Virus record (IMG/VR): IMGVR_UViG_3300035182_001152
Reading direction: 5' to 3' (one strand)
Length of the DNA: 64,000 nt
From: a virus
Taxonomy: Duplodnaviria > Caudoviricetes
The position numbers and the translations under genes are program-made. Below are positions 10,449-54,555 of the stretch, one piece after another. Under the pieces are notes generated by a model. The model was given only the letters and a program-made list of their open reading frames with translations. It searched no databases and had not been told where the DNA came from. Position 1 is the stretch's first letter, and each line of letters starts with the position of its first letter.

Positions 10449-10742
10449 ATGAAACTAACCGAAGGCAAAATCACCACGATCATCTACGAGAAGGACAGTG
10501 GTGAGAAATCGTCCCGTGTCATCATCCCCGTTCAAGTTCCAAAGGATCTGATCCGCGCAATCGACCTGTCGGACGTTGAACCGGATCAACGTGAAGCCGT
10601 CGCGAAGCTGTATGAAGAGTACGCTGAGTACAAGGCTCGATACCTGAGCAATATGTTCAACTTCGAGACGTGGGCTGATCACACATATGGTGCTGTGATG
10701 AAACCAGCGTGGCGATCCTTCAAAACTTCTGGTCTACGGTGA
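10449..10742 (+). CDS. hypothetical protein
   Basis: 97 aa with AAGGA RBS; ends with WRSFK, a pattern seen in SH3/WYL-like phage proteins. Confidence 0.7.
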   Translation: MKLTEGKITTIIYEKDSGEKSSRVIIPVQVPKDLIRAIDLSDVEPDQREAVAKLYEEYAEYKARYLSNMFNFETWADHTYGAVMKPAWRSFKTSGLR

Positions 10743-10746
10743 ACGA

Positions 10747-10774
10747 GAGCCTCTTCGGAGGCTCTTTTCTTTTC
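10747..10774 (+). terminator. rho-independent terminator
   Basis: AGAGCCTC-TTCG-GAGGCTCT followed by TTTCTTTT. Confidence 0.85.
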
Positions 10775-10824
10775 TGGTTCCATAAATACAGCACGAAACT
10801 ACACGCTGTAGAGGAACAGAATCC

Positions 10825-11994
10825 ATGAAACTGCTGAAACAACTAAACGATAACGCCAAGACCCAAGCTCTTGCAGAAGATGCGGCAGGGGGTGCTGTAG
10901 GCGGCGGCGCTATGGGGATTGTTGCTATGCCCCTGTTCTCCTCTCTAGTGAAGAACACCAAGCCTGGCACGTCCATCAAGCCAATCCCAGGCCCGTATGC
11001 TGGCAAGAAGTCCAAGAAGAAGGGCATCTTTGGTCTGAAGGAAGCGTTCGACTCGGCAATGGGTGGTCAAGGTATGGGTGACGCTGCAGGTGGGGCAAAG
11101 CCAGCCCTTGACACCACAGAGGTGATGGCAAAGCTAAAGGGCCTTGAGCAGAAAGAAAAGGTCGACCACCGTGATACCGTCTCGTTTGGCCTTGAGGATG
11201 ATAATGGCGCTACAGTCCGCGTCACTGTCAAGCGCGACCAAGCTGAAGACTTTGAAAAGGCCCTCCAATCGATGATGGCCAGCTTCGAGGAGGAAGACGA
11301 AACTGTGCCAGAGATTGCTGAAGTACTGTTCAAGCTGAAGGATCAGTTTGACATTGTCGATGTTAAGTGGCCAGAAATCGCTGAAGACGAAGAAGAAGAC
11401 CAAGCTGTTGCAGGCGGTGAGCAGGCTGATCCTGGTGGCGAAGGCGACCTAGGCGATCCAAACGATCCGAATGCTGGAGGTGACATGGACCTCGGCGAAC
11501 CAGAGCCAGCTGCTGGTGGGGATGCCGACGCTGCCGGCCTACTGACGCAAGTCATTGACATGATGAAGGCTGACGCTGAAGCCCGTAAGGCAGAGGCGCG
11601 TGCTCGCGAAGCAGAGGCAAAGGGCAAGGAAGCAAACGCGATCGTTGCACAAACAATGGCTCGTGTTAAGCAAGAAGAGCAGTACCTGGACATGGACAGC
11701 TACAACAAGGCTAAGAAGGAAGAGAGCAAGGAAGCCAAGCGTCTAGCACAACTGGCTAAGTGGAAGCACGATCTTGCACGCGATTCTGGCGACAGCCTTG
11801 ATGACGACACTGACGGTGCTGATATGCCTTTGGTTCCAAATCGCGAGACAGCACCAGAAGAAGAGGAGCGCACGTATCGCACCCCTTCACGTGTTCCACA
11901 CACCCAAGTAGCACAACCGAAGAAGGTAGCCCCCGCTAAGGGCCGCGTACACCCGTACGACATCGCCGAATTCATCATTGGTAGGGTCAAATAA
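10825..11994 (+). CDS. acidic low-complexity late protein, probable head-internal/virion protein
   Basis: 389 aa; TAAATA at 10783-10788; ALAE and GLKE gp21-type motifs; acidic linker and coiled coil. Confidence 0.7.
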   Translation: MKLLKQLNDNAKTQALAEDAAGGAVGGGAMGIVAMPLFSSLVKNTKPGTSIKPIPGPYAGKKSKKKGIFGLKEAFDSAMGGQGMGDAAGGAKPALDTTEVMAKLKGLEQKEKVDHRDTVSFGLEDDNGATVRVTVKRDQAEDFEKALQSMMASFEEEDETVPEIAEVLFKLKDQFDIVDVKWPEIAEDEEEDQAVAGGEQADPGGEGDLGDPNDPNAGGDMDLGEPEPAAGGDADAAGLLTQVIDMMKADAEARKAEARAREAEAKGKEANAIVAQTMARVKQEEQYLDMDSYNKAKKEESKEAKRLAQLAKWKHDLARDSGDSLDDDTDGADMPLVPNRETAPEEEERTYRTPSRVPHTQVAQPKKVAPAKGRVHPYDIAEFIIGRVK

Positions 11995-27409: not shown

Positions 27410-30400
27410 TCAGTCGTCGAAAAGACCCCCAACCTCAAGCACGCGAATACCGTGCAGGGCGATCCAGGACGTCTTCAGTAGTTCCTTGTATTTAGCGCGA
27501 GTGGATAGGGCGTCAGATAACGCTTCGAACCAAATTGCGTTGACGTGCAAGGCGTTGAACGTTGTGTAAATCGTATCCATCGCTACTGCAATATTCGCAG
27601 GAGTATCAAACGAATGTGTCGCGAAGAAAGCATCGATATCCGTTGGAGAGAAGTCATTCAGCGGATTGGTCAAGTACGCAAGTACTGTCGCAAGGCCAAG
27701 CTGTTTATCAACGAATGCTTGATCAATTCCAAGACCGAAGCGAGTGTCCGTGCCTAGTGCAGCATCGTACAGCTCGCGCTCAAGCGAAGGTACGCGGATA
27801 GACGAATCGGTTAGCTTGTAGCCGATTAGAGATTCAACCAAACGATCCCACAGAACACGAGCAATCGTGCTCGTTTGATCACGACGGAACATCAACCACT
27901 CCTGGTGCTTGTTCTTCAGATTCATCTGCTTGCCGTTGGCAGCAGGATCATCGCGAAGAGCCCAGTCGCGGGTGAAACGAACGAAGTAACGGTTGTCGTC
28001 GTTGATGTAGCTTGCAACCTTACGAATGATTGCTTCACGATACAGCACCGGCACTTGGTAGTCCGCCTCTGTCAGAATGCCGAGACTAAAGATTGATCCG
28101 TACTCAATCATGCCATAACCGTACTTCTCCATCAGGTATGGGTCGTCCTTAGGACGCTGAACGATGAAGTAAGGAGTTGGAATTGCAACCAGCTGCTGTG
28201 CTACCTCGAATGCTGATAGGCTGCTCGAATCCGTTACGTCACGTGTGGTCGACCCTTCTACCCAGAAGTAGTAGTTTGTCACTGTTGTGGCACCAGTATT
28301 AGCACCACCATACGTGAACGTCGTTGTTGAGTATTCGTAATCAGACTTCCACTGGATCATCTGCGTGCCGTCGTCAACCACGTCTGGGTTAAACGCAGCT
28401 TCAGCAGTCGTGATTGTGTGGACTGGACGGATAATGTCAATAATGTCGTACTCATTCAGCACAACCGGGTTAGCAGCTGTGACGTAGAACTGTGAACCAT
28501 CCTGCGTAATTGGCAGGCCGGTCTCAACGAGCACACCGTTGACATACACATCAACTGTGTCAGCACCAGTACCCGTCAGCACCCAAGCACTTGGATTGGA
28601 CGGTGTCCAAACGTAACGTTGCAGACCCGTTGCCGTCGACACATTATACGGCCACGTAATCGTAGCAGTGACACTTGCCGTTGCACGCAAAGAAGCAACC
28701 ATGAGAGGTGCTAGAACACGGTCGCGCAACATCGACTGGGAGACCCAATCAGTAGCAACGAAGCCTGGAACAACCATAACGCTGGCGCCGGCTGTGGTAA
28801 TTACCACAGGTTCCTCAGTCGATGGGTCCAGTAACGTGAACGTTGTTCCAGTATTAGCAACAACATACGGTACACCTGAGTCAATTCCAACAGGTAGGGT
28901 AGCTGCAGTGAACAACACACGATCACCTTGTGTGAACGATACTGACGTTGTGACTTCGTTAGTGGTGGTGTTAATCGTTGCAGCGTGTGACGTACGTACA
29001 CGCTTGAACACGTTCTTACGAGGTGTTCCGGTTGCTTTGTTGTTCTGAGCGATCAACGAGTTTGTCGATTGAGATGTAACCAGTGCGTCCCACTGGGATG
29101 GTGGCACTGAAGACTTGACCCACTCATACACCTTAACGTCAGCCCACGGTGCCAGCTTACCCCAGTTGTACAGGCGTGCGTTGACGTCTGGGAACACCTT
29201 GTCATCGTAGTATGGCAGATAGCCAAGTGCAGCCGTATCTAGCCACACCGTGCCGACTTCTTGTTGGTTCCAGAAGTTCAGCGATGCGTTTGTTGGGTTT
29301 GCAGTGAATTCGTAGCGAGCTGGGTCACCAGCGTGCTGCAGATCAACGTTGTGGATTGCAACGTGTGAATGACTGCCGCGTGCCGGATCCCAAATCGGAA
29401 TCTGCTGAACTACTGTATTCGCAACGTTGTCAATCAATTTAGCCGGGCTTAGCTTTGTCTTGGCGGGGTTTAATGCGAAGATTATCAGCACGTCTTGGAA
29501 GCCGAGCTTGTTGAAGCGAATGATCTCAGAGTCAACCTTCGTCACTTCCTTAACACCCGACCCAGCGTCATAGAACTCCGTCACGTAGTTACCGAAGTCT
29601 TCCGTCGTCACGAAGCCGAGCGGCGCGGTTGTTGAAGGTACAGACACAACAGTGATTGTTGTGTTTGTGCCATCGTACACGACAGCTGTTGGGTAGTACG
29701 AACCATTGTTCGAATCAGATTGTGTGATTGCAAAGGGGACACCCACTTGCACGTTGTTGGTTTCGTTGCCTGCAAGCACGATGGTTGTACTTGTAGCGCT
29801 GACGATCGGCGTATCCGTCTTCGCTAGAATGCGGTGCAACACGCGGACATCGTCACAAGGCTGATCCAACTTGAAATACACACAGTCAGTCGCAGCCAAG
29901 CCGTCAACTAGCACCGGTTGAACCGTAACTCGCGCTGATTGATCAACCGTCCACAGCCCCGTAGTTGAATTATAACCAAACAACTGGTTCGTTGTTGGGT
30001 TGAACCAGAACGTAATCGTCCTTTCAGCGCCAGGAGGGGGTGGGTTTACACCAGAGTGAATCAGCGTCATTGAAGAGACGCTTGCATCCAGGAACAGTGG
30101 TGAACCAATTTCCGCCTTTTGCTCTGGGAAGTTGTTCCAACGTGTTCCGTCGTTCCACGAAACAGGCTGGAAGCCCTTGTTGACGGCAGCAACAACGTCG
30201 TCATCCGTTGGTAGTTCAGACGTAGCCAAGAACTCCAGACGGACGTCGTCCAGCGCACCGTCCGTTGAAAACATGTTGATCTCTGGATACACACGTGGGC
30301 GGGAGTCGCCATATTCAGCAATCTTGTACGCCCAGAATTCATCCATCTGCGCGTCGATGAAGCGACGAGAGTTGATGTATGCCTTGACGCTGTTGACGGA

Positions 30401-33400
30401 GCCCTTTGTTTGAATCATGCCACGGTAGAACAAAAACTGTGACTTGCTGTTAATGTTCAAGAAGTCAAGGAAGGACGACTTGCCCGTGTATCCTAGTAGG
30501 GCGCGGGACCGGCGTGCGAACTCTGATGTTTCAGACAGCTCCATCGTATCGTAGAAGTTGCGGATATCTCCCGTGGAACCTTCAATGTTACGATTGAATT
30601 GTTGATCGAGCAGGTAGTATCCACCCAACGTTGGACGAAGGGTGTAGTCAGCCTTCTCAAAGTAATCAACGTCGAACTTCTGCGACTGCAACCCGAGGAA
30701 CGGATCGTAAATCAGTGAGCCATCAACGGTGTAATCATTGAAGATCAAGAAGTGTTCGTAGCCTTCCACGAACAAGTGAGCGCCACCAACGTGGATGTAG
30801 TTGTATGGATCATCCACGTAGATCGGATCTACGTCATTCGTAATCGCAGGACGGATAGCAATTTGGCTCCGCTTGTCTTGACGGTACACAGTAATTTTAT
30901 CGGCGTTCAACGGACGGGCATATTGGTCATAGATCGTCTGTTGGATGCGAATATCACTGTATGGACCTTCAATCACATTCGACAGCACGCCAAGCGGTGT
31001 GTCAATCCAAGCACCGTTCCGCTGTGGGTTCATTTCAAAACGTGGGTATGCGCGATTCTTGTTGTACAGACCGACCATCACCTGACCGGATCCCGCAGTC
31101 GACAGCGTAACAAACGACGATGAGTCGTTTGGATTGGCACTAATTGACAAGCGGAACACACCCGTTGACACATTGACAATGTAGTATGGAGTGTTGCCGA
31201 TCAGTGGTGCAGGTAAGTCGCCTGACGACGACACAGTCACAACCGTACCGCTCAACCACTGAGGAACAGCGGCGCCGAACGTCAACAGGCTGGTCGTTGG
31301 GTTAGCTGTGACGGGGAACGTGTCGGAGATTGTGATTCGCGATTGACGCAGACCATACGCCCAGTTAATGAACCGCTCCGTCTCAACTGACCAGTCAGCG
31401 ATGCGGCCGGTTTCAGGATCGAAGTCGCGAGCATCCGCAACACCTTGGAGAATTCCCTGGTCAGCCTGGTACGCAGCATAGCCATCAAACAAGTTGATCA
31501 GCGATTGCATACCCAACACCGTGTATGGTGGTGAGAATTTCTGAACGTCTGTCCGATCGACAACGTAGTGGAACCACAGATCCTGTGTATTGCCATTGCC
31601 ACCGTACACATAGAACGACGTATCAACCTGAGAGATCGTCAAGTTGCCTTCACCCGCAGACGTTAGATCGATTGCATTACCGAGGATTGCGTCGTTTGGT
31701 GTTGCGGCGAGCTTGAACGTGTTACCTGTGATGCGGATCACGTAGTATGGCGTGTTGGGCAGTAGTGGTGCTGGTAGGAACTTCGCGGAACCAATCACCA
31801 CCATATCGCCTGTTTGCCAAGGCAGAGACTTAGCAACGTTAACAGTACCATCGGCAGCAGACGTAGCAATCGCCTGCTGCACGTTAATGCGGGTTCGGTT
31901 CGTCGTAGTTTCAAACACGGACGATGTCACGGTATACGTGCCGTTGTTGGTCGATGAACCAACAACGGTCAATGTTGAACCTGCTGTGAACGTTGACGTG
32001 TAGTCGCCACTGATACCGAACTGACGAGCTGCAGCGTTAGCAACAACGATTGGGTAGCGGAATGCTGTGCCAACGTCAGTCGTTGGATCTGCTGTAAATT
32101 GGTACGAACGAATGCCGTAATACGAAATTTCGCGCGCAACTGCGGCGAGTGAATCAACCTCCATCTTCCACTGTGCTTGGTTGTTGTACTGCACCAGCGG
32201 AGGTGGAATGTTCAGTAGGGTGACTTCGAAGCCATCCAGCCACATATCACGAATCACGCCGTTGTTAGCCAGTGTGATTTGGTAATCTTGGTTGATCACG
32301 TCGAAGTACTTGTTTGCGATCTCAAACGTGCTTGTATCGACAATGCCACCAAATTGGTAGGTCAGACGCGGGCTCCAACCAGCCCACATCTCGCGGAACT
32401 GGGTATTGGTGTCAAAACCGCTGAAACGGTTGAAGTTAACGTACCATTGGTTAATACCACGGACAAGGTATACCTTGTCCGTGTCATACACGTCACCGTG
32501 GAACAGCGTATCAACGTGGCTGTACACTTGCTTAAACGTTGTCTCTACCTGCAATCCATCAACAACCGTGTAGCGTGGGCCAAAAGCGGCGTGCAAGAAC
32601 CGTGCTGGCTGCATCAGGAATGCAATTACAGGCTGATCATATGGGTGCTGCCCCGATACTGTCCACGACCACTCCACCGGACCAACATCGCCAAATGCAT
32701 AGTCAGCGTCAGGAGCGACGATTTCAACACCGTAGTTGTTGAAAATCGAGCGGACTGTAGGATTTGCCAACGCAAGTGATGCATTGTCGTAGTATGGTGG
32801 TAGTAGGGCATCTGGGGCGTAGCCGCCTGGGATACCACCATCAGAGATGTTGACGGAGAAGTAAGCATAGTGTGGCAGGGCTTGTCCATCGGTCACTGGG
32901 TTACCTGTGCTGATAGCACCGTTGGGATACGTGCGGCCAGCAGGTACAATGCCAAGACGGACGTTCTGCCACATACCCGTCGTCGTTGAGTGAACGTACT
33001 TCCACTTACGTGCACCAGTGGTGTCAAGGTACTCATCATCCCACCACGTTGGCTTATCGTGGTAGCCCTGCAGCTTCCACGGCTCCAGGTTAGGATATGG
33101 TGTGCCGTACCAACGTGTGTACACTTCTTGCCAAGAAGAGGCAAAAGCTGGAGTGATGTCATTACGAGGACCGAGCACAGGCGTGCTTGCAGCGTAATTC
33201 CACGTGAATGCGTTTGTAGCCGTGTAGGCTGTATTCACGTACGGTGAAGACTGTTCTGATGCAGCAAGGAACGCCGTAAAGCGTGAGCGGCTGAGATTGT
33301 TGTAGGTGGTTTGCTCACTCTGCGTTGGCGTTAGCGTGCTGTAATCAAACACGGATGCCGATACAGGCGTGACTTCGTACAGACGCGTTTCAACCTCCAG

Positions 33401-36400
33401 CTGCACTGCACCCAACAGTTCCGCAAAATTGACAGTTGTCCACAGAGGGCTAATGTCACCAGAACCCGGCGTAGTCACAGCAACCCACGTGAAGCTCGAC
33501 TTCTTGTAGGTTGCTTGTGTTGTGAAATTGTAGTACATCGTACCGTCAGCAATTTCAGCTCCCGAAGCATCGTAGAACGAAGGCGCGACGCCGTTGATCG
33601 CATATGGGCTGAATCGCTGTAGCTTGCGTACACCACCACTGACACGGTACCAGTACACGCCTGTGCGCAGGCTGCCAAATGCTGCAATGGCATTCGCTGT
33701 TGTTGGTGCTGCGGCTGTGCTAACTACACCAAACTTGCCATTGCTAACGCGCGAATCAGTGATACCACAGATGATTCGCGACAGTTTGTCAGCTTCGGCA
33801 GCGCTGTAGTAGATCTGGGAACGGTGACCATCGTGGTGGAACAGACGAACGTCGCCGTTGTCGTTTGTCAAGTGTGGGCGATACAGTGTAGCTAGGCCTA
33901 ACATCGGAGCTGTAGCGATCCAATTTTGGATGCCCTTGCCCGTAGTTGGATCGTATGCCACAGTATCTCCATACGTCTGAGCTTCAAAATCATTGGTTTC
34001 GTACTCAGAGATCACCGATTCGCTCAAGAATGCGCCAAAGTCTAGTAAGGACTCAGGAGTATACGTTGCGAACGTTGTCGTGATCGTCTTGTTGAAGATG
34101 TCACGAATTGACAACAGACCGGAAGCGTATTCACGAGCGGCGAATTCTATTACGCCCACTGGGGTGACATTCGTCACGTTAACGGCTGAGATCAGCGTAT
34201 CAAAGCCGTCGTTGTGTTCCTTAATTGTACCACCAACGCCGTAACCGACGTCGTTTTGTGTCAGAGTATATGCTCCACCACCCAGCAAGCCAGGGATTGC
34301 TGTTTGACCTGATAGGATCGAACGGAAGTGTGTCAGGATCTGTGAGAACTTAACAATCTGCTTATTTTCGTGCTCTGGGTTGTACTGCCATTGATCCAAC
34401 ACTTCCCAATCACCAAGCTCGCTACCAACCGTAACGGGGTTGCGTGATGCATCAACGTATGAAGGAACGTATTGTTGATTCGTAAGACCGTGCTTCCACA
34501 CCGTTTGTAGAGTTGGGTCCGTGTCGTTGATTACCAGATCAGACACGGGCACCCATGCACTTGCGTTGCGTTGATACAACACATTGTTCGTCGTGTCCAT
34601 CCAGAATGAATGTTCAACATTCAATAGGGATGCAGGTGGCAATGCTGAGATAACAGGACGGCGGAACGCAATGCCAGCACCAACCGTTACAGGGATGTTC
34701 TGTGTCCAAGCCTTACCGTCCCAGTACTGTACGGTGTTCAGCAGAGGGCTATACCAGAAGCTCTGTGGAGTAAACGTGTTACGGTAGCCGTAAATCACAT
34801 TGTCGTCCCGATCCAGGAGGTACTGCTGAAATTCGTATTCCTTACCATCCGTAGAGGCAACGATGCGGCGGCCAACGGCTGGGTTGACAGACGAAGAAGA
34901 CGATTCATTAAAAGCAAACAAAGGATTAGCAGCGATCACATCTGACGTGACGACATCGTACACGTTGAATTGTGGGTATTGGTTGATCAACGTCTTTGTT
35001 TGCTCTAACTTGTGATATTTTGTCAGCGACAGGTACGCAGGTTGTGTACCTGCAACCGTAGCTAACGTGAATGCCGTCTCATCTTCAATAGTACGAACAG
35101 GAATGGCGTACATACCTGCATCAGCCTGTGCGGCAGGGCCAACTTCGAGGCGTACGATGTCGAATTGTGCCAGAGGCGTCTGGAACACGATTGACTGAAC
35201 GTATGGAATTGTTTGTGTCGTCTGTCGTGTTGTACCAACCACAGTATATGAAGGGACACCCACACCAACAATTTCGGTGTAGTTCGCGTATTGGCGAATG
35301 CCGTTTACGTACACGCGTAGTTCGTTGCTGCCAGGAGTTGCGTACAGCTGCGACGTTGCCAGGTTGTAACGGAATTGATCAACAAGATCAATCTGTGTTA
35401 CGCCGGTAATGTCGATATTCTGTTCTTGGAAGGCATTACCAATTTGGATCGAGGTTGTTTGTGGAACAAACGTCAATCCGTTGTCAGCATGAACTGGCAG
35501 GGAGCTAACAGCAACCAGAGGAGGGGGGTTGACCAAATCTTGTGTGAGGAAGTAATTCCAGCTACAGTTTCGTGACGGTACGCCAACCGTGGACGTTTGA
35601 TCCAGTACCCAGTGAACGTGGTAACCACGCCAGATGTCTCCTGCAGCCGTCAGCAAAGGTTCAATGCGAGCATACTCTAGGCCGCCACCTGAAGGTGTTG
35701 ACGTGAATGTTGATTCTGCGAGCGCAACTACCGTACACAGGTAGCCGAGACCGACGGCGGTTTGCACTAGCGACGGATCGCTAATCGTAACTTGACGATA
35801 TTCAGACGCAGCGACGGTGTAAACTGCTGAAGCAAGGGTGTCGTCGGTGAAACGGAACTTGAAGCCAGGAACAAACGTTTGCGAGTAGTCGGTGTCACGG
35901 TTGACGGTTGCCGTTTGTTGGAAGAGGTACAACGTCCAGACACCACCAATGTTGGTGACGTAGTAGCCCTTAATTGGCTCTAGTTCAAATCGTGATGGCA
36001 CAACCGTCGCTGAGGCGAACGCTGCATCAACGGTTGAGCGATACTTCCACGCATACGTGAAACTTGTCCACTCGTTTTGTTCAATCGTGCTGTTGTACTC
36101 AATGATTGGGACTTGAGCACGCTTGACGTCGGAAAAGGACTGAACTTGTGATTTGTGAATCCAGGCGTTTTGAGAAGACCACTGATTCAACACCTGCGGT
36201 GTGCAACCTGCAGATGTGTCCCATTCAATCCCCTCACCAGCATCCCATTGACCAATGTCCCAACCGTACGTTCCGTTGCAGACGCAGTTTGCTTCCGCTT
36301 GGTATTCGTTCAGCTGTTGGGTTAGGTCGATGTTTACAGCAATCGCTTGGACGGTTGCAACCCACGCGGTGCCTGACCACGATTTGAGGATTGAAGCTGT

Positions 36401-37192
36401 AGTATCGTACCACCACTGGCCAAGGAACGGTACGGCTGGTGGTGTAGATCCTGCTGACGCGATCGATTCAACGACGGCGACGGTCGTCTTGTTTGTGGTA
36501 GAATCGTACGTAGAACTTGCCACAACCCAGCGCTTGTTGGCAACGTTGACGTCAACGTTGCCATCTGTGTAGAACGCAAATCCAGCAATGAACAGGTCAT
36601 CCTGCTTCGACGAGATCACGAACGTGTCTGTCGCATAGCCAATTGCTTGCACGGGGAAAGTGCCGCCACGCAGGGCGATCATGTTTGCGTATGATTGAGC
36701 CTTGCTTTGAGCCTTATTGCAACGATTTTCAATCGTGAAGTACTGGGCGGGATCGCGGGCATTTTCTGGCTTCCAGAAGTAATCCTGGTAGTTAATCAGC
36801 ATGTCCATGTTCACTGGAGGTGCCCAGTTGAACTGAAGAGTATTGGCCCACAAAGGCAAACGATTGATGTCAACACCCATCAGCGCTAGCTGCTCTTGGA
36901 ATGCCTTATAGGACAGAGCATTCTCAACAGTACCAACCGTTGAGAACATCGTTGGTGCTAGTTGAAACGCTTGACGGTGGGGGGTTGATTCCTTGATCTG
37001 ACGATCAACGAGGGCTTGTGGATTGCCTTGACCGATGAAGCCCGCAACACGTGCAGTGTCGTCCTTCGTCAGGTGACGATTGAACGCAACATCAAACATG
37101 CTCTTGTTGACTTCAGAGCGGTATACCTCTGGGAGGTAGTTGTTGATGTTATTGAAGGGGATCGTGTGATCTGAGTTTGTTGCCACGGGCAT
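27410..37192 (-). CDS. giant baseplate wedge protein (gp7-like position)
   Basis: Uninterrupted 3260-aa ORF downstream of gp6; N-terminal YLPEVYR; repeated beta modules. Confidence 0.8.
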   Translation of the reverse strand: MPVATNSDHTIPFNNINNYLPEVYRSEVNKSMFDVAFNRHLTKDDTARVAGFIGQGNPQALVDRQIKESTPHRQAFQLAPTMFSTVGTVENALSYKAFQEQLALMGVDINRLPLWANTLQFNWAPPVNMDMLINYQDYFWKPENARDPAQYFTIENRCNKAQSKAQSYANMIALRGGTFPVQAIGYATDTFVISSKQDDLFIAGFAFYTDGNVDVNVANKRWVVASSTYDSTTNKTTVAVVESIASAGSTPPAVPFLGQWWYDTTASILKSWSGTAWVATVQAIAVNIDLTQQLNEYQAEANCVCNGTYGWDIGQWDAGEGIEWDTSAGCTPQVLNQWSSQNAWIHKSQVQSFSDVKRAQVPIIEYNSTIEQNEWTSFTYAWKYRSTVDAAFASATVVPSRFELEPIKGYYVTNIGGVWTLYLFQQTATVNRDTDYSQTFVPGFKFRFTDDTLASAVYTVAASEYRQVTISDPSLVQTAVGLGYLCTVVALAESTFTSTPSGGGLEYARIEPLLTAAGDIWRGYHVHWVLDQTSTVGVPSRNCSWNYFLTQDLVNPPPLVAVSSLPVHADNGLTFVPQTTSIQIGNAFQEQNIDITGVTQIDLVDQFRYNLATSQLYATPGSNELRVYVNGIRQYANYTEIVGVGVPSYTVVGTTRQTTQTIPYVQSIVFQTPLAQFDIVRLEVGPAAQADAGMYAIPVRTIEDETAFTLATVAGTQPAYLSLTKYHKLEQTKTLINQYPQFNVYDVVTSDVIAANPLFAFNESSSSSVNPAVGRRIVASTDGKEYEFQQYLLDRDDNVIYGYRNTFTPQSFWYSPLLNTVQYWDGKAWTQNIPVTVGAGIAFRRPVISALPPASLLNVEHSFWMDTTNNVLYQRNASAWVPVSDLVINDTDPTLQTVWKHGLTNQQYVPSYVDASRNPVTVGSELGDWEVLDQWQYNPEHENKQIVKFSQILTHFRSILSGQTAIPGLLGGGAYTLTQNDVGYGVGGTIKEHNDGFDTLISAVNVTNVTPVGVIEFAAREYASGLLSIRDIFNKTITTTFATYTPESLLDFGAFLSESVISEYETNDFEAQTYGDTVAYDPTTGKGIQNWIATAPMLGLATLYRPHLTNDNGDVRLFHHDGHRSQIYYSAAEADKLSRIICGITDSRVSNGKFGVVSTAAAPTTANAIAAFGSLRTGVYWYRVSGGVRKLQRFSPYAINGVAPSFYDASGAEIADGTMYYNFTTQATYKKSSFTWVAVTTPGSGDISPLWTTVNFAELLGAVQLEVETRLYEVTPVSASVFDYSTLTPTQSEQTTYNNLSRSRFTAFLAASEQSSPYVNTAYTATNAFTWNYAASTPVLGPRNDITPAFASSWQEVYTRWYGTPYPNLEPWKLQGYHDKPTWWDDEYLDTTGARKWKYVHSTTTGMWQNVRLGIVPAGRTYPNGAISTGNPVTDGQALPHYAYFSVNISDGGIPGGYAPDALLPPYYDNASLALANPTVRSIFNNYGVEIVAPDADYAFGDVGPVEWSWTVSGQHPYDQPVIAFLMQPARFLHAAFGPRYTVVDGLQVETTFKQVYSHVDTLFHGDVYDTDKVYLVRGINQWYVNFNRFSGFDTNTQFREMWAGWSPRLTYQFGGIVDTSTFEIANKYFDVINQDYQITLANNGVIRDMWLDGFEVTLLNIPPPLVQYNNQAQWKMEVDSLAAVAREISYYGIRSYQFTADPTTDVGTAFRYPIVVANAAARQFGISGDYTSTFTAGSTLTVVGSSTNNGTYTVTSSVFETTTNRTRINVQQAIATSAADGTVNVAKSLPWQTGDMVVIGSAKFLPAPLLPNTPYYVIRITGNTFKLAATPNDAILGNAIDLTSAGEGNLTISQVDTSFYVYGGNGNTQDLWFHYVVDRTDVQKFSPPYTVLGMQSLINLFDGYAAYQADQGILQGVADARDFDPETGRIADWSVETERFINWAYGLRQSRITISDTFPVTANPTTSLLTFGAAVPQWLSGTVVTVSSSGDLPAPLIGNTPYYIVNVSTGVFRLSISANPNDSSSFVTLSTAGSGQVMVGLYNKNRAYPRFEMNPQRNGAWIDTPLGVLSNVIEGPYSDIRIQQTIYDQYARPLNADKITVYRQDKRSQIAIRPAITNDVDPIYVDDPYNYIHVGGAHLFVEGYEHFLIFNDYTVDGSLIYDPFLGLQSQKFDVDYFEKADYTLRPTLGGYYLLDQQFNRNIEGSTGDIRNFYDTMELSETSEFARRSRALLGYTGKSSFLDFLNINSKSQFLFYRGMIQTKGSVNSVKAYINSRRFIDAQMDEFWAYKIAEYGDSRPRVYPEINMFSTDGALDDVRLEFLATSELPTDDDVVAAVNKGFQPVSWNDGTRWNNFPEQKAEIGSPLFLDASVSSMTLIHSGVNPPPPGAERTITFWFNPTTNQLFGYNSTTGLWTVDQSARVTVQPVLVDGLAATDCVYFKLDQPCDDVRVLHRILAKTDTPIVSATSTTIVLAGNETNNVQVGVPFAITQSDSNNGSYYPTAVVYDGTNTTITVVSVPSTTAPLGFVTTEDFGNYVTEFYDAGSGVKEVTKVDSEIIRFNKLGFQDVLIIFALNPAKTKLSPAKLIDNVANTVVQQIPIWDPARGSHSHVAIHNVDLQHAGDPARYEFTANPTNASLNFWNQQEVGTVWLDTAALGYLPYYDDKVFPDVNARLYNWGKLAPWADVKVYEWVKSSVPPSQWDALVTSQSTNSLIAQNNKATGTPRKNVFKRVRTSHAATINTTTNEVTTSVSFTQGDRVLFTAATLPVGIDSGVPYVVANTGTTFTLLDPSTEEPVVITTAGASVMVVPGFVATDWVSQSMLRDRVLAPLMVASLRATASVTATITWPYNVSTATGLQRYVWTPSNPSAWVLTGTGADTVDVYVNGVLVETGLPITQDGSQFYVTAANPVVLNEYDIIDIIRPVHTITTAEAAFNPDVVDDGTQMIQWKSDYEYSTTTFTYGGANTGATTVTNYYFWVEGSTTRDVTDSSSLSAFEVAQQLVAIPTPYFIVQRPKDDPYLMEKYGYGMIEYGSIFSLGILTEADYQVPVLYREAIIRKVASYINDDNRYFVRFTRDWALRDDPAANGKQMNLKNKHQEWLMFRRDQTSTIARVLWDRLVESLIGYKLTDSSIRVPSLERELYDAALGTDTRFGLGIDQAFVDKQLGLATVLAYLTNPLNDFSPTDIDAFFATHSFDTPANIAVAMDTIYTTFNALHVNAIWFEALSDALSTRAKYKELLKTSWIALHGIRVLEVGGLFDD

Positions 37193-51086: not shown

Positions 51087-51416
51087 ATGCAGATTCAGTG
51101 GGCAAGCTCGTATGTATACATCGTGGCAAACAAGGGTGAGGAAATCACCGAAGAATGGTGGCGCGACCCTAATATCCAACTGATGACGCGACTGAATGAG
51201 GACACCGGCGCATGTTTTGTTATGCGGCGTCGCCCAGAGCCAGCGTCAGTTCGTGAGTGGGTCAATCCTGCAACATTCGCCACCGAGCTGCGCTATTTGC
51301 ATGGGTGGGATTACACAACGGCATATAAGGGTCACATGACCTATGACATTTTGTACCTGCCCCTGGATGGTCACGTGTATACACCACGTGAGCAGGAAAT
51401 GATGAACAACAAATGA
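51087..51416 (+). CDS. paralog 1 of tandem unknown family
   Basis: WWRDPNI...WVNPAT...HVYT; TAAATA at 51061-51066 and AGGAG RBS. Confidence 0.75.
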   Translation: MQIQWASSYVYIVANKGEEITEEWWRDPNIQLMTRLNEDTGACFVMRRRPEPASVREWVNPATFATELRYLHGWDYTTAYKGHMTYDILYLPLDGHVYTPREQEMMNNK

Positions 51417-51754
51417 AGATTCAACGCCTAGACAACCAGTTAATGATCACCGCTCATGGTGATAATCGCGGCGACCCCGATTGGTGGAAAGATCCAACAA
51501 TCAGCATCGTTACATATATGGATTTGGATAGCAAATTGTCGTGGATGGCAACTCGTACTACCCCAAATCCTATCGTGAAAAATTGGGTTAATCCAACAAC
51601 GGGCGTTGTTACATTGCGTGCTGTTTGCTCGTGGGATGTGCAGGGATATGATCGTCGCGGTGAATTCTTCGACTACAGTACGTCATTCCCTGTCAACAAA
51701 CACGTATACACTGACAAGGAAGCGGCGATTTTCAATCGTCGGAATACGCCATGA
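51413..51754 (+). CDS. paralog 2 of tandem unknown family
   Basis: WWKDPTI...WVNPTT...HVYT; ATGA overlap. Confidence 0.75.
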   Translation: MKIQRLDNQLMITAHGDNRGDPDWWKDPTISIVTYMDLDSKLSWMATRTTPNPIVKNWVNPTTGVVTLRAVCSWDVQGYDRRGEFFDYSTSFPVNKHVYTDKEAAIFNRRNTP

Positions 51755-52080
51755 TTACGTTTGACCGCAAGGGATCACTGCTGTTTGTTCAAAAAGACAG
51801 TAGCCACCCTATTGATGGCGACTGGTTTCGTGATCCACTGATTGATACGATCATTGTGCTGAACCTGGAAACAGGTGCGTTTGATACGTTCGAACGCACG
51901 ACTGATAAGCCATACTTCTCCCCATATACAACGACGACCTACATTCTCGTCCACGAATGGCATTTAACTGTCATCGGTCCTGATGGAATCGCACGCGTCG
52001 CGCGCCTTGAAATTGTCGTTAACAGGCATCAATACACAGAGAAGGAGAAGCAGATTTACCTCCGCCGACATGGTAGCTGA
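51751..52080 (+). CDS. paralog 3 of tandem unknown family
   Basis: WFRDPLI...HQYT; ATGA overlap. Confidence 0.75.
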   Translation: MITFDRKGSLLFVQKDSSHPIDGDWFRDPLIDTIIVLNLETGAFDTFERTTDKPYFSPYTTTTYILVHEWHLTVIGPDGIARVARLEIVVNRHQYTEKEKQIYLRRHGS

Positions 52081-52121: not shown

Positions 52122-52601
52122 ATGGAACGAGTACTCGGGATCGATCAATCATACAACAACTGCGGTTTCGTCATGAAAGATGAAGCAAACGCGATGATTG
52201 ATTTTGGTACGTTCAAGTCAGCCAAAGCAAGCGACATCTATGACCGCGCACGACAAATCGCTGGATTCGTTGCCGACAAGGCCGTTGAGCACAACGCTAA
52301 GCGAATTCACATTGAGGGGCTGGCTTTCGGCATTCGTGGTGACGCAACACGCGATCTGGCAGGCTTGCTGTTCACGATCATTACAACGCTACGTAACCGG
52401 AACATAAATGTAGAGGTGGAAATCATCGCTCCCACGTCCCTGAAGAAATTCGCTACAGGTTCTGGGAAGTCCGATAAGGCAGCGATGATTACGGCAGTCC
52501 CAGCCGCTATTCTTGAGAAGTTCACAGAAGCAAAATACAAAAAATCAACTGGATTGGCGGACTTATGCGATGCATACTGGCTGTCCCAGTTCAAGGCATA
52601 A
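52122..52601 (+). CDS. RuvC-like Holliday junction resolvase
   Basis: VLGIDQSY, IHIEGLAFG, PTSLKKFATGSGKSDK, DLCDAY. Confidence 0.88.
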   Translation: MERVLGIDQSYNNCGFVMKDEANAMIDFGTFKSAKASDIYDRARQIAGFVADKAVEHNAKRIHIEGLAFGIRGDATRDLAGLLFTIITTLRNRNINVEVEIIAPTSLKKFATGSGKSDKAAMITAVPAAILEKFTEAKYKKSTGLADLCDAYWLSQFKA

Positions 52602-52630: not shown

Positions 52631-53182
52631 ATGACAAGAAGCGAAGCCAGACGACTCAATTTGATGTACTATGATGCTACAAGGCCTTGCAAATTAGGTC
52701 ACACAAAGCGCTACACGTCAACTAGGCGATGCTGTGAATGCACTGCTTCACAGGGTAGCGAATGGCGGAGAGTCAACGTAGACCGGGTCAAGCAAACGAG
52801 TGCTGCCTATTACACAAACCATGAAGCTCGGATCCAAGCTCGAACTCACAAGTACTACGAATCTAACAAACAAGCATACAAAAACCGCAGTCATCAATGG
52901 CGTAGATTGAACCCACATAAAATTGTGGAGCATAATCGACTACGAAATACGAGACTGCAGCAGGCAATTCCTGGGTGGTTTGAGGATGATTTGGTTAAGC
53001 AGCTGTACGCAAAGAGAGATGAACTCAATGAAAGGTATGACTGGGAGTTAACAGTAGACCATATTATCCCGCTAAATCCGCGCGACGGATCGGTGTGCGG
53101 ATTGCATTGTTGGGCTAACTTACAACTACCCAGCAAGGGATTAAACGACTCCAAACGCGATAACTATATCACAGACTGGTAA
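52631..53182 (+). mobile_element. free-standing HNH endonuclease
   Basis: TVDHIIPL...VCGLHCWANLQ...NDSK; N-terminal PCKLGH...R..S...CCEC; start set at ATG 52631. Confidence 0.85.
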
Positions 53183-53520
53183 CAAGTCTGTCGCTGAAAC
53201 AACACAGCGTAATAACTAGAAACATCAGGCGGATATACCCTGCTACCGCCGGAGTGGGAACAGATCAGTGCAATGCTGATAACGAGCCCGTGGTATGGAG
53301 TCCACAGAAGTTGACCCGCTTGGGAGTAATGCCCACTTTACAAATCAAACAAGCCTGTGTAGTTCAGGCCGTGAGGTACTTCCAATCAGCCACGTTAGAG
53401 CGGGGCAGGGATCAATTATCGCTGTAGCCGGTAGTTCCGACCAGAAAAACGAATCAGCCATAATGCCGTCACGAAGTAGGCATTATGGCTGATAGCGCAG
53501 CTCCCTATGTTCCGGCCAGC
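53172..53520 (+). ncRNA. candidate large structured non-coding RNA (family unassigned)
   Basis: No credible ORF; at least eight short helices plus two long-range pairings; G-U wobbles favour the plus strand. Confidence 0.5.
53444..53493 (-). terminator. 15-bp hairpin, probable terminator for the gp26/gp51-like transcript
   Basis: ATCAGCCATAATGCC (53453-53467) / GGCATTATGGCTGAT (53479-53493), followed by TCGTTTTT on the minus strand. Confidence 0.6.
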
Positions 53521-53527
53521 TCAGCAG

Positions 53528-53755
53528 TTAGTAGATCGGGTTGGTCTTCTTGGCTTCCATTTCGAGTCGTTTCTCGATGAACTCGCTGACGGCCTCCCGT
53601 TCCACTCGTGTCATCTCGTACATTTCACCGTACTGAATAGCGCCTCGCATGAAGTACACTAACTGGATGATATTCGTCATCATTCGACGTTTATCTTCGC
53701 TCATTCGACGAAACATCTCGCGGACGTCGTCGTGAGAGCCCGAGCTAAGCGTCAT
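53528..53755 (-). CDS. baseplate hub assembly protein (T4 gp51-like)
   Basis: LVYFMRGAIQYGEMYEMTRVERE; ATGA-coupled to the gp26-like gene. Confidence 0.75.
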   Translation of the reverse strand: MTLSSGSHDDVREMFRRMSEDKRRMMTNIIQLVYFMRGAIQYGEMYEMTRVEREAVSEFIEKRLEMEAKKTNPIY

Positions 53756-54555
53756 GTAAAAAAACTGACGGGGTTCGCAGAAATCTGGACTGGCATAGTC
53801 TTCTTGCAGTCCTTACACACCTGCTCAGAAACGAACTCAATACCCCACGAAGTAGCATGCTGAGCAGTGCGCTCAATCATCTTCTTCCAGCCGAGGGGCA
53901 ATGAGATCACCCATTCACGGATGTCGTTGCGGTCTGAAACATCGTCAACACGACGGATCACACCGGTAAGAGTGTTAATGATCAACGCTTCTGCCTCCAC
54001 GTGCGTGATGTCTTCCGTCTTCGTCAAAGCGGTCGTCTGGTACAACTCAACAACATCGCTGTATGTCAAGGGCTTGAGAACGACAACCTGACCATTCGGA
54101 AGTGTTGTTTTGTACTCCTCATTGATTACCGTTGGGTCAATCACCTTTGTATTGCGGATCATCTGCTGCATATCAACCATGTAGTTGTGCGTCTTCGCAC
54201 CTTCACACGTGTGGCGATACGACACTTCCATGAATTGTCCGAAAGACACCTCACGCAGACACGCCAGCAGGAAGTCCACATCTTTTGATAGGAGCTTACC
54301 TGGCTTCAACACCTGTGGAATACAGTTGGCGAAGATTTCCGTCACTGCCTTCCCTGACAGTAGCTTGTCAGGCGTGCTCAGAATGATTTCATCCATTGCC
54401 GTCATTGGGCGAACTTCAACCTCACCGCCCTTGACGCTCGGATCCAACTCACCATCATCGTAAAAAAGACCTTGAGATGGTAAGCGGTACGTGACACCAG
54501 GGACGCGTAAGCGTTCCAATAGTGGGTTCGTACGCTTTGTTACTTGTTCTGACAT
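53752..54555 (-). CDS. baseplate hub subunit/chaperone (T4 gp26-like)
   Basis: YRLPSQG, VRPMTAMDE, DVDFLLACLR.VSFG, C-terminal CKDC; TATTTA at 54577-54582. Confidence 0.82.
   Translation of the reverse strand: MSEQVTKRTNPLLERLRVPGVTYRLPSQGLFYDDGELDPSVKGGEVEVRPMTAMDEIILSTPDKLLSGKAVTEIFANCIPQVLKPGKLLSKDVDFLLACLREVSFGQFMEVSYRHTCEGAKTHNYMVDMQQMIRNTKVIDPTVINEEYKTTLPNGQVVVLKPLTYSDVVELYQTTALTKTEDITHVEAEALIINTLTGVIRRVDDVSDRNDIREWVISLPLGWKKMIERTAQHATSWGIEFVSEQVCKDCKKTMPVQISANPVSFFT

Follow-up and report, generated by a model that had tools for sequence, protein, structure and literature searches.

A probable new family of structured noncoding RNAs at operon ends in uncultured jumbo phages

We analyzed a 64,000-nt stretch of the viral record IMGVR_UViG_3300035182_001152 (hereafter the window, with the strand shown taken as plus), part of a jumbo phage genome in which a 345-nt gap (53183-53527) separates the stop codon of an HNH-type endonuclease gene (TAA, 53180-53182) from the stop codon (53528-53530) of a minus-strand open reading frame (ORF) of 75 amino acids. 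The two flanking genes converge on the gap, with a RuvC-type resolvase gene upstream of the HNH gene and a baseplate hub gene beyond the 75-amino-acid ORF (Table 1). An original prediction from the letters of the window had proposed that this interval encodes a large structured RNA; the sequence confirms the gap, and comparison with related phages indicates that it very probably contains a genuine conserved structured RNA element. The RuvC protein is 40-71% identical to the product of the gene preceding the element in seven relatives (L001, L123, L371, L278, L375, L041 and L040, where L-numbers denote loci of related contigs compared with the window), and the HNH protein has no Pfam match and gives tblastn matches of ~30% identity to small phage nucleases. 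The window hub protein shares 53-67% identity with the hub proteins of element-bearing uncultured jumbo-phage contigs, 40% with its counterpart in Ralstonia phage RsoM2USA and 30-35% with those of the XacN1 group. Among DNA samples, the window is best represented in a microbial-mat metagenome. ARAGORN reports 0 tRNA or transfer-messenger RNA (tmRNA) genes in the window.

Related contigs were gathered by hub-protein searches of IMG/VR and JGI metagenomes and by short conserved DNA patterns. In MAFFT alignments of these contigs, invariant blocks alternate with stems of differing sequence, and because MAFFT misaligned the stems we bootstrapped a covariance model, R1, from the near-identical pair L040/L045 with a structure drawn by hand on L040 and searched it against all fetched loci. 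R1 matches the window at 53191-53351 (E 1e-12), as well as L123, L041, L277, L335/L338, L371, L278 with its identical copies, L300/L331/L377, L375 and L376, and matches L304/L318 and L001 in part, giving ~12 distinct homologs that all lie in uncultured jumbo-phage contigs. A family model, R2, gives the window 129 bits, and both models match the window from 53191.

Seven helices, comprising P1, P2, P3, P4, P6, P7 and a small pseudoknot, are kept by compensatory change across this family. In a model-guided alignment of the 5′ domain (13 sequences), 87% of cells are paired versus 72% in shuffled alignments, 18 pairs have changed on both sides versus 9.1 expected, and 0 of 500 shuffles reach the observed value for any of five measures; in the 3′ domain (11 sequences), 96% of cells are paired versus 81% in shuffles, again with 0 of 500 shuffles reaching the observed values. 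Sliding the partner strands lowers pairing to 30-46% in the 5′ domain and to 23-49% across the controls of both domains, and these controls, together with the number of independent stem replacements, make a chance origin of the stem pattern very unlikely as judged from the alignments. The flanking proteins are only 40-70% identical, yet blocks of 20 nt in the gap are invariant and the stems between them exchange by compensatory pairs. Compensatory stem changes also distinguish L300 from L368, two copies on one contig. Covariation thus bears out the predicted existence of a structured, conserved, noncoding element with covarying homologs. Every local hairpin originally listed is present in the window (CAGACT/AGTCTG, CGCTG/CAGCG, GGCGG/CCGCC, ATCAG/CTGAT, GTGG/CCAC, GCCTG/CAGGC, CGTG/CACG and a 15-bp hairpin), and six of them correspond to the covarying helices P1, P2, P3, P4, P6 and P7, respectively, from CGCTG/CAGCG through CGTG/CACG.

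The modeled fold is composed of a 5′ domain formed by P1, P2, a three-way junction of P3a, P3 and P4, and P5, a 3′ domain formed by P6 and the P7 pseudoknot, and a long hairpin that follows. Helix P3a, in which GGAAC pairs with GUU..CC to enclose P3 and P4, is a predicted helix without sequence variation among members, and carries no covariation signal because it never varies; P3 aligns badly because its length varies. P7 has the consensus CGYG/YRCG, and its alignment pair 31-53 is CG in 5, UA in 5 and UG in 1 of 11 sequences. The candidate pseudoknot, S2, would add two to three pairs and reads GC in 8 and AU in 3 sequences. Three of the long-range or pseudoknot pairings proposed in the original prediction did not hold up among relatives, and the bipartite pseudoknot drawn from them is unsupported: GAGTGGG/CCCACTT is perfect in the window only and keeps 4-6 of 7 pairs elsewhere with no compensation, CCCGCTT/GAGCGGG likewise retains 4-6 of 7, with just 4 left in three lineages, and CCCTGC/GCAGGG retains 3-6 of 6 pairs, with only an invariant CCCU/AGGG core kept. 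The P2 loop may still contact AGGG, although the bases concerned are invariant and no covariation can be read from them.

Two hairpins resemble terminators. P5 is followed by a run of six U residues in L300/L331 and L335, and in L331 (5849-5864 plus U6) is called terminator-like on the plus strand; the window, L040, L041 and L375 have a weak U-run or none. At the 3′ end of the window gap, the 15-bp hairpin is followed by a U-run, UCGUUUUUC, on the minus strand only (complement of 53444-53450), and a terminator scan tool does not call it because its loop is 11 nt. This GC-rich hairpin with its U-run has the makeup of an intrinsic terminator on the minus strand alone and leaves 53192-53438 unexplained; from its sequence it is likely the intrinsic terminator of the convergent operon of the hub gene and 75-amino-acid ORF. 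The hairpin is probably also part of the RNA, because an equivalent long hairpin with a GAAGUGA-type apical loop is present in a second genomic context that has no convergent gene (the NadM context, described below).

Table 1. Genes and element features at the window locus (window positions)
Feature	Position	Strand	Details
RuvC-type resolvase gene	52122-52601	+	159 amino acids; Pfam RuvC PF02075, E 9e-5
HNH-type (endonuclease VII-like) free-standing gene	52631-53182	+	183 amino acids; PHROG phrog_1035 'endonuclease VII', E 1.3e-8
P0 hairpin CAGACT/AGTCTG, HNH stop codon in loop	53172-53190	+	Phage-specific; unrelated hairpin or none in other copies
Core unit	53192-53438	+	Conserved span; matched end to end by a 248-nt contig from related samples
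P1 hairpin CGCUG/CAGCG, conserved AAACAA loop	53192-53209	+	Conserved 5′ edge; 4/4 pairs covary, 100% of cells paired
Single-stranded linker UAACUAGAAAC	53213-53223	+	Invariant in alignments A12 and A13
P2 hairpin GGCGG/CCGCC, conserved 13-14-nt loop with ACCCU	53228-53250	+	5/5 pairs covary
Three-way junction P3a/P3/P4 (predicted)	53257-53316	+	Junction strands AG, AACGAGCC and AGAA invariant
P3 (ATCAG/CTGAT)	53264-68/53276-80	+	Own perfect 4-6-bp stem in every lineage (hand reading)
P4 (GTGG/CCAC)	53290-93/53302-05	+	5/6 pairs covary
Invariant CUUGGGAG, then P5 hairpin	53319-53341	+	P5 88% paired, poorly aligned
P6 hairpin GCCUG/CAGGC	53353-53369	+	5/5 pairs covary
P7 CGUG (53370-73)/CACG (53391-94), conserved 16-nt loop AGGUACUUCCAAUCAG; G-rich tract to 53411	53370-53411	+	Covariation
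Candidate pseudoknot S2, CAGC/GCGG	53387-90/53400-03	+	Covariation
15-bp hairpin (module C), conserved apical motif CGAAGU	53453-67/53479-93		Sequence; equivalent long hairpin in both contexts
3′ tail (module D), CUAUG.U.CC	53494-53527	+	Partly conserved, weak; reaches stop codon of 75-amino-acid ORF
Conserved 75-amino-acid ORF	53528-53755	-	Convergent with element; after hub gene; 42-64% identity in relatives
Baseplate hub gene	53752-54555	-	Pfam T4_baseplate

Analysis of reading frames indicates that the element is noncoding. Described as free of ORFs, the gap in fact contains ORFs of 57 and 65 amino acids; what stands is that no reading frame is conserved among the homologs. Frames differ from member to member, the longest ORFs of the window and L001 are unrelated, spacing between conserved blocks changes by non-multiples of 3, and most members have stop codons in all six frames. 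We also considered a small protein gene starting from a GGGAG-N2-AUG motif found in seven members. The AUG is missing in L123, L375, L041 and L040, and the ORFs that follow the motif vary in length from 8 to over 40 codons and differ in the frame in which they read the conserved blocks. With no frame conserved, this candidate was rejected.

We compared gene order to define the upstream boundary of the element and its relationship to the HNH gene. Syntenic relatives (L001/L039, L040/L045, L041, L042, L123, L278/L358/L368/L369, L304/L318, L371 and L375) share the order SbcC-like gene, RuvC, a gap of ~260-350 nt, a convergent ORF of 62-75 amino acids and the hub gene. The HNH gene is absent from 10 of 10 syntenic relatives, where RuvC is followed directly by the element, which makes the window HNH gene a ~590-bp insertion between RuvC and the element that is peculiar to the window phage. 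Consistent with a boundary at P1, its first base, 53192, is an exact branch point among contigs of related samples, which branch again at 53221 and 53409-53438. The suggestion that the RNA starts at the 3′ end of the HNH gene was accordingly not upheld, as the conserved 5′ edge is P1 and only this phage has the hairpin that encloses the HNH stop codon. One contig joins the hairpin found upstream of the element in the NadM context to 53192-53700 with zero differences, and might represent either a recombinant that lacks the HNH gene or a join made across the repeat during assembly. Homing endonuclease genes frequently adjoin their conserved targets, and we infer that the HNH gene is a selfish homing endonuclease gene parked beside very conserved DNA.

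These comparisons separate the element from RNA-guided nuclease systems of the OMEGA type, a tempting link that had been raised on the model of HEARO/omegaRNA-IscB and the TnpB right-end RNA (reRNA), with which the locus shares a structured RNA adjoining genes of the RuvC and HNH folds. In IscB, a single polypeptide of ~400-500 amino acids combines a split RuvC with the bridge helix and HNH domain, whereas here the RuvC protein is an ordinary small resolvase, separate from the likewise small HNH protein, and the element has no match to HEARO (RF02033) at the gathering threshold or at E≤10. The RNA and nuclease of an IscB-omegaRNA pair are expected to co-occur, but the element is kept without HNH in the ten syntenic relatives, and in at least three other copies both RuvC and HNH are missing from the vicinity. 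TnpB reRNA overlaps the 3′ end of tnpB and the right end of an IS200/605 element, and the window locus has no TnpB-like ORF or IS200/605 ends. By synteny the HNH gene is a later insertion, and the RNA family is not HNH-associated in the OMEGA sense.

Proximity to the RuvC stop codon is a feature of several copies, with the element beginning 0-10 nt past the stop or overlapping it in L123, L371, L278 and L375. In L123, the RuvC ORF (10472-10960) overlaps P1, and the element match starts at 10940. Within this overlap (10942-10960), the last six RuvC codons and the stop are encoded by P1 and the linker, so that translation to the stop would open P1. A conserved edge at or across an upstream stop codon, and invariant unpaired nucleotides clustered at a three-way junction with a possible pseudoknot, are features expected of a catalytic RNA, self-cleaving or of another type, that would process the upstream mRNA at its 3′ end, and small ribozymes are abundant in phage genomes. 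We nevertheless regard catalysis, as far as sequence can suggest it, as very improbable: the element has no match to an Rfam ribozyme even at E≤10, no core motif of a hammerhead, twister, hatchet, pistol or hepatitis delta virus (HDV)-like ribozyme was recognized in it, and its size and two-domain build exceed those of known self-cleaving RNAs. An intron remnant, which the original prediction named beside a ribozyme, is a further candidate reading.

Beyond the RuvC context, homologs occur in other genomic surroundings. In L277 and L300/L331/L377, the element is flanked on one side by a small ORF that follows a coaD-like cytidylyltransferase gene and on the other by a bifunctional NadM-Nudix gene; in this NadM context, a NadR-like kinase gene is nearby and all flanking genes are on the strand of the element. 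The cofactor cluster in L331 (4888-8181) and L277 (5096-7242) consists of the coaD-like cytidylyltransferase, NadM-Nudix (nicotinamide mononucleotide adenylyltransferase plus Nudix) and the NadR-like AAA_28 kinase, and from these gene assignments looks like a phage module for salvage or reconstitution of nicotinamide adenine dinucleotide (NAD). L335/L338 and L376 have yet other surroundings. Two contigs, IMGVR_UViG_3300050158_000039 and 3300050161_000064, each carry both a RuvC-context and a NadM-context copy, and in the former the two copies (L300 and L368) are ~75 kb apart. A 248-nt contig from related DNA runs equals 53192-53438 save for 8 differences (~97% identity), and would represent a second, near-identical copy of the core in the related samples. 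All 8 differences fall at 53230-53248, in P2 and its loop, and include a compensatory exchange of 53230 C>A with 53248 G>T; P2 may be the part that functionally distinguishes the two paralogs.

No neighboring protein is common to these contexts, which number at least three, and this argues against a cis-regulator of one gene. A cis-regulatory RNA, riboswitch-like or protein-controlled, is the second-ranked explanation, one we consider unlikely. In such a mechanism, P1-P4 would sense a ligand or factor, and P5 and the U-run behind it would serve as terminator or anti-terminator, gating read-through into NadM-Nudix or, in the window, antisense transcription into the hub operon. Like the three-way-junction riboswitches (purine and thiamine pyrophosphate classes, or by context the NAD+ classes), the element has highly conserved junction and loop nucleotides around a three-way junction, as in aptamers, a hairpin and U-run in some copies (L331, L335 and L300) and one context upstream of an NAD-salvage gene. 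A co-directional gene follows the element in three cases, NadM-Nudix in L277 and in L300/L331 and a gene for a 299-amino-acid protein in L335; a promoter seen by eye between the element and nadM fits only 8 of 12 positions and is not called by a promoter scan. The GGAGC loop of P3 is also complementary to the 3′ half of P5 in L300 and L335, creating a potential alternative pairing, but this complementarity is limited to those two lineages. A riboswitch is expected to hold a consistent position in a 5′ leader, and here the next gene is convergent in 10 of ~14 loci; the commonest context, that of the window included, has no co-directional gene downstream, the downstream genes vary by context, and several copies have little or no U-run after P5. 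Further conserved structure of 280-500 nt between P5 and the next start codon, a large extra 3′ domain and the lack of an Rfam riboswitch match also set the element apart from known riboswitches.

Three observations lead us to favor the plus strand as the strand of the RNA: P7 is closed in 9 of 11 sequences by a G-U pair, which on the minus strand would become A-C; the unpaired runs that never vary are rich in A when read on the plus strand, as is usual in RNA loops and junctions; and the flanking genes of the NadM context all run in the direction of the element. The terminal G-U wobbles first cited for the plus strand proved a weak argument, as the five best core helices contain 264 Watson-Crick, 3 G-U and 7 A-C pairs. 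No promoter upstream of P1 is conserved among copies, and P1 either adjoins the stop codon of the preceding gene or overlaps it, so that the simplest source of an RNA is read-through from that gene. In a wastewater metatranscriptome library, a contig of 237 nt lacks an HNH gene and connects the 3′ end of a diverged RuvC gene to 53280-53341 with one difference, a weak hint that fits co-transcription. In nine RNA-library runs from three studies, 3 of 26 sampled words are present, a small share that is not evidence of expression. Stretches of the HNH gene are uncovered in runs X2 and X4, a coverage gap to which we attach no meaning.

The nearly pure Watson-Crick composition of the core helices is also what would be expected if the conserved structure acted in DNA, either as a structured site, single-stranded or cruciform, used in replication priming, recombination or packaging or as a repeat mediating rearrangement between the two copies. 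Two copies per genome, near-identity of the copies in the window phage population, which suggests gene conversion, a homing endonuclease gene at the edge of the element and the lack of an identified promoter of its own all fit this explanation. We consider it improbable, ranking it third, on the grounds that the P7 G-U pair is kept and would be lost on the other strand, and that RNA tertiary structure typically features multi-helix junctions, pseudoknots and invariant A-rich loops of the kind modeled here. Furthermore, no terminal inverted repeats or target duplications were seen by eye at the edges of the unit, and the window site lies at converging rather than diverging transcription.

A conserved two-domain fold, many invariant unpaired bases, several copies in several contexts and the lack of a fixed neighbor lead us to rank a trans-acting noncoding RNA (ncRNA) first. 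The complete reading, that the element defines a new family of orphan ncRNAs that are co-transcribed with upstream genes and act in trans, is one we propose tentatively and judge to fall slightly short of an even chance. According to this model, the RNA would be transcribed as a 3′ extension of the upstream genes, may then be processed, and would act in trans as a scaffold or decoy for a phage or host factor bound through the invariant purine-rich loops and junctions. In its placement, the element is similar to small RNAs (sRNAs) derived from 3′ untranslated regions or operon ends, likewise lying right after a stop codon, in the direction of the upstream gene and with no conserved promoter; it differs from Hfq-type sRNAs in being much larger and more structured, with no seed region or target identified.

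Several points weigh against this trans-acting model and the RNA element on which it depends. Action in trans is a guess, the binding partner is hypothetical, and the transcript, its ends and its strand are predictions from sequence. The 237-nt RNA-library contig could be DNA carry-over, the near-absence of G-U pairs would also fit DNA-level hairpins or use of both strands, and a co-directional gene follows three copies (L277, L300/L331 and L335). The aligned sequences are few and related, so that the shuffle controls overstate significance. Folding energy provides a further caution. The whole gap has folding z-scores of -4.55 (plus strand) and -2.75 (minus strand), but most of this excess comes from the 15-bp hairpin, and the core (53192-53438) without it scores -0.91 on the plus strand and 0.00 on the minus strand, no better than shuffled sequence and an outcome that the original prediction had listed as speaking against a structured RNA. 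By thermodynamics alone the claim of structure would fail, and the case therefore rests on comparison with relatives.

Together with the minus-strand U-run that makes the 15-bp hairpin a plausible terminator of the hub operon, this source of folding energy is what would be seen if the gap were simply a bidirectional terminator region whose incidental hairpins are kept by close kinship. We find that account hardly credible and place it last, after catalysis: it is already contradicted by covariation and by the second genomic context, with invariant 20-nt blocks and compensatory stems persisting despite the divergence of the flanking proteins and with the element also found between co-directional genes.

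Among known RNAs, close parallels are GOLLD and ROOL, large ornate orphan ncRNAs often carried by phages. The element is similarly a large, multi-helix, phage-borne orphan RNA with invariant loops, but it matches neither Rfam model in sequence or structure, is shorter than GOLLD (~250-330 nt versus a model of at least ~420 nt), is not adjacent to tRNA genes in the window and occurs as two copies per genome. In relatives, a true GOLLD copy and tRNA genes lie 2-4 kb downstream of the NadM-context element. These full-length GOLLD RNAs (Rfam RF02032) are at L331:9536-9970 (219 bits) and L277:7938-8365 (204 bits) and are followed by tRNAs that include one with a CTA anticodon in each locus (L331:11827-11902 and L277:10315-10390), labeled tRNA-Pyl by ARAGORN and of amber-suppressor type, a possible sign of TAG recoding in part of the genomes of these phages. 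Orphan RNAs of large size and many conserved helices are uncommon, and past examples proved to be ribozymes, riboswitches or RNA-protein machines. The present element is kept as two diverging copies per genome, at operon ends beside DNA-repair and NAD-salvage genes, and provides a defined 250-nt construct for structural and functional work. That it represents a new class of ligand-sensing or catalytic giant-phage RNA, for example an NAD-pathway sensor gating P5 or a ribozyme trimming operon 3′ ends, is a long shot.

We used database searches to define the limits of the family. Rfam 15 (4227 families) gives no match at the gathering threshold over the window and none relevant at E≤10 over 53000-53800, in agreement with the proposal that the RNA is undescribed, and a scan of the loci of 5 relatives at E≤1 yields no match for the element while recovering GOLLD and tRNAs there; no Rfam riboswitch, ribozyme, tmRNA, RNase P, group I or II intron, GOLLD, ROOL or HEARO model matches it. 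Searches against phage sequences by blastn with the gap and by megablast with 12 kb returned no match. Short patterns recovered spurious matches: a 19-nt module-B pattern has one chance match in IMG/VR, inside a gene (L035), a 24-nt module-B pattern retrieves coding chance matches (L365 and L366) and ordinary terminators (L367 and L370), and a 16-mer has at least 120 matches in bacterial genome contigs, all by chance and none matched by R1. R1 and R2 find nothing in the whole records of RsoM2USA, XacN1, Xoo-sp13 and RAS14 or in ~100 loci of more distant hub relatives. The element is not described in the papers reached by full-text literature searches, which did not extend to comparing the contents of the catalogue PMC10690425. 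That 2023 catalogue holds 8495 unnamed candidate RNAs from IMG/VR that could include pieces of the element, and its text names none of these genes. The element thus appears from these searches to be a previously unclassified family of structured ncRNAs confined to one clade of uncultured jumbo phages.

Three further observations concern gene content near the hub and elsewhere. In RsoM2USA, ~1.4 kb without annotated genes follows the hub gene (251624-253024; L033:4787-6187), with a 60-amino-acid ORF at a position like that of the window 75-amino-acid ORF and ~1 kb without a long ORF; this 1-kb gap was considered as a site of the element and ruled out, as the RNA models do not match it. Between the SbcC-like ATPase gene and RuvC, the window has three tandem paralogous ORFs of 109-113 amino acids (51087-52080; 25-30% mutually identical) where L123 has one. 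On the minus strand at 27410-37192, the window encodes a single ORF of 3260 amino acids.

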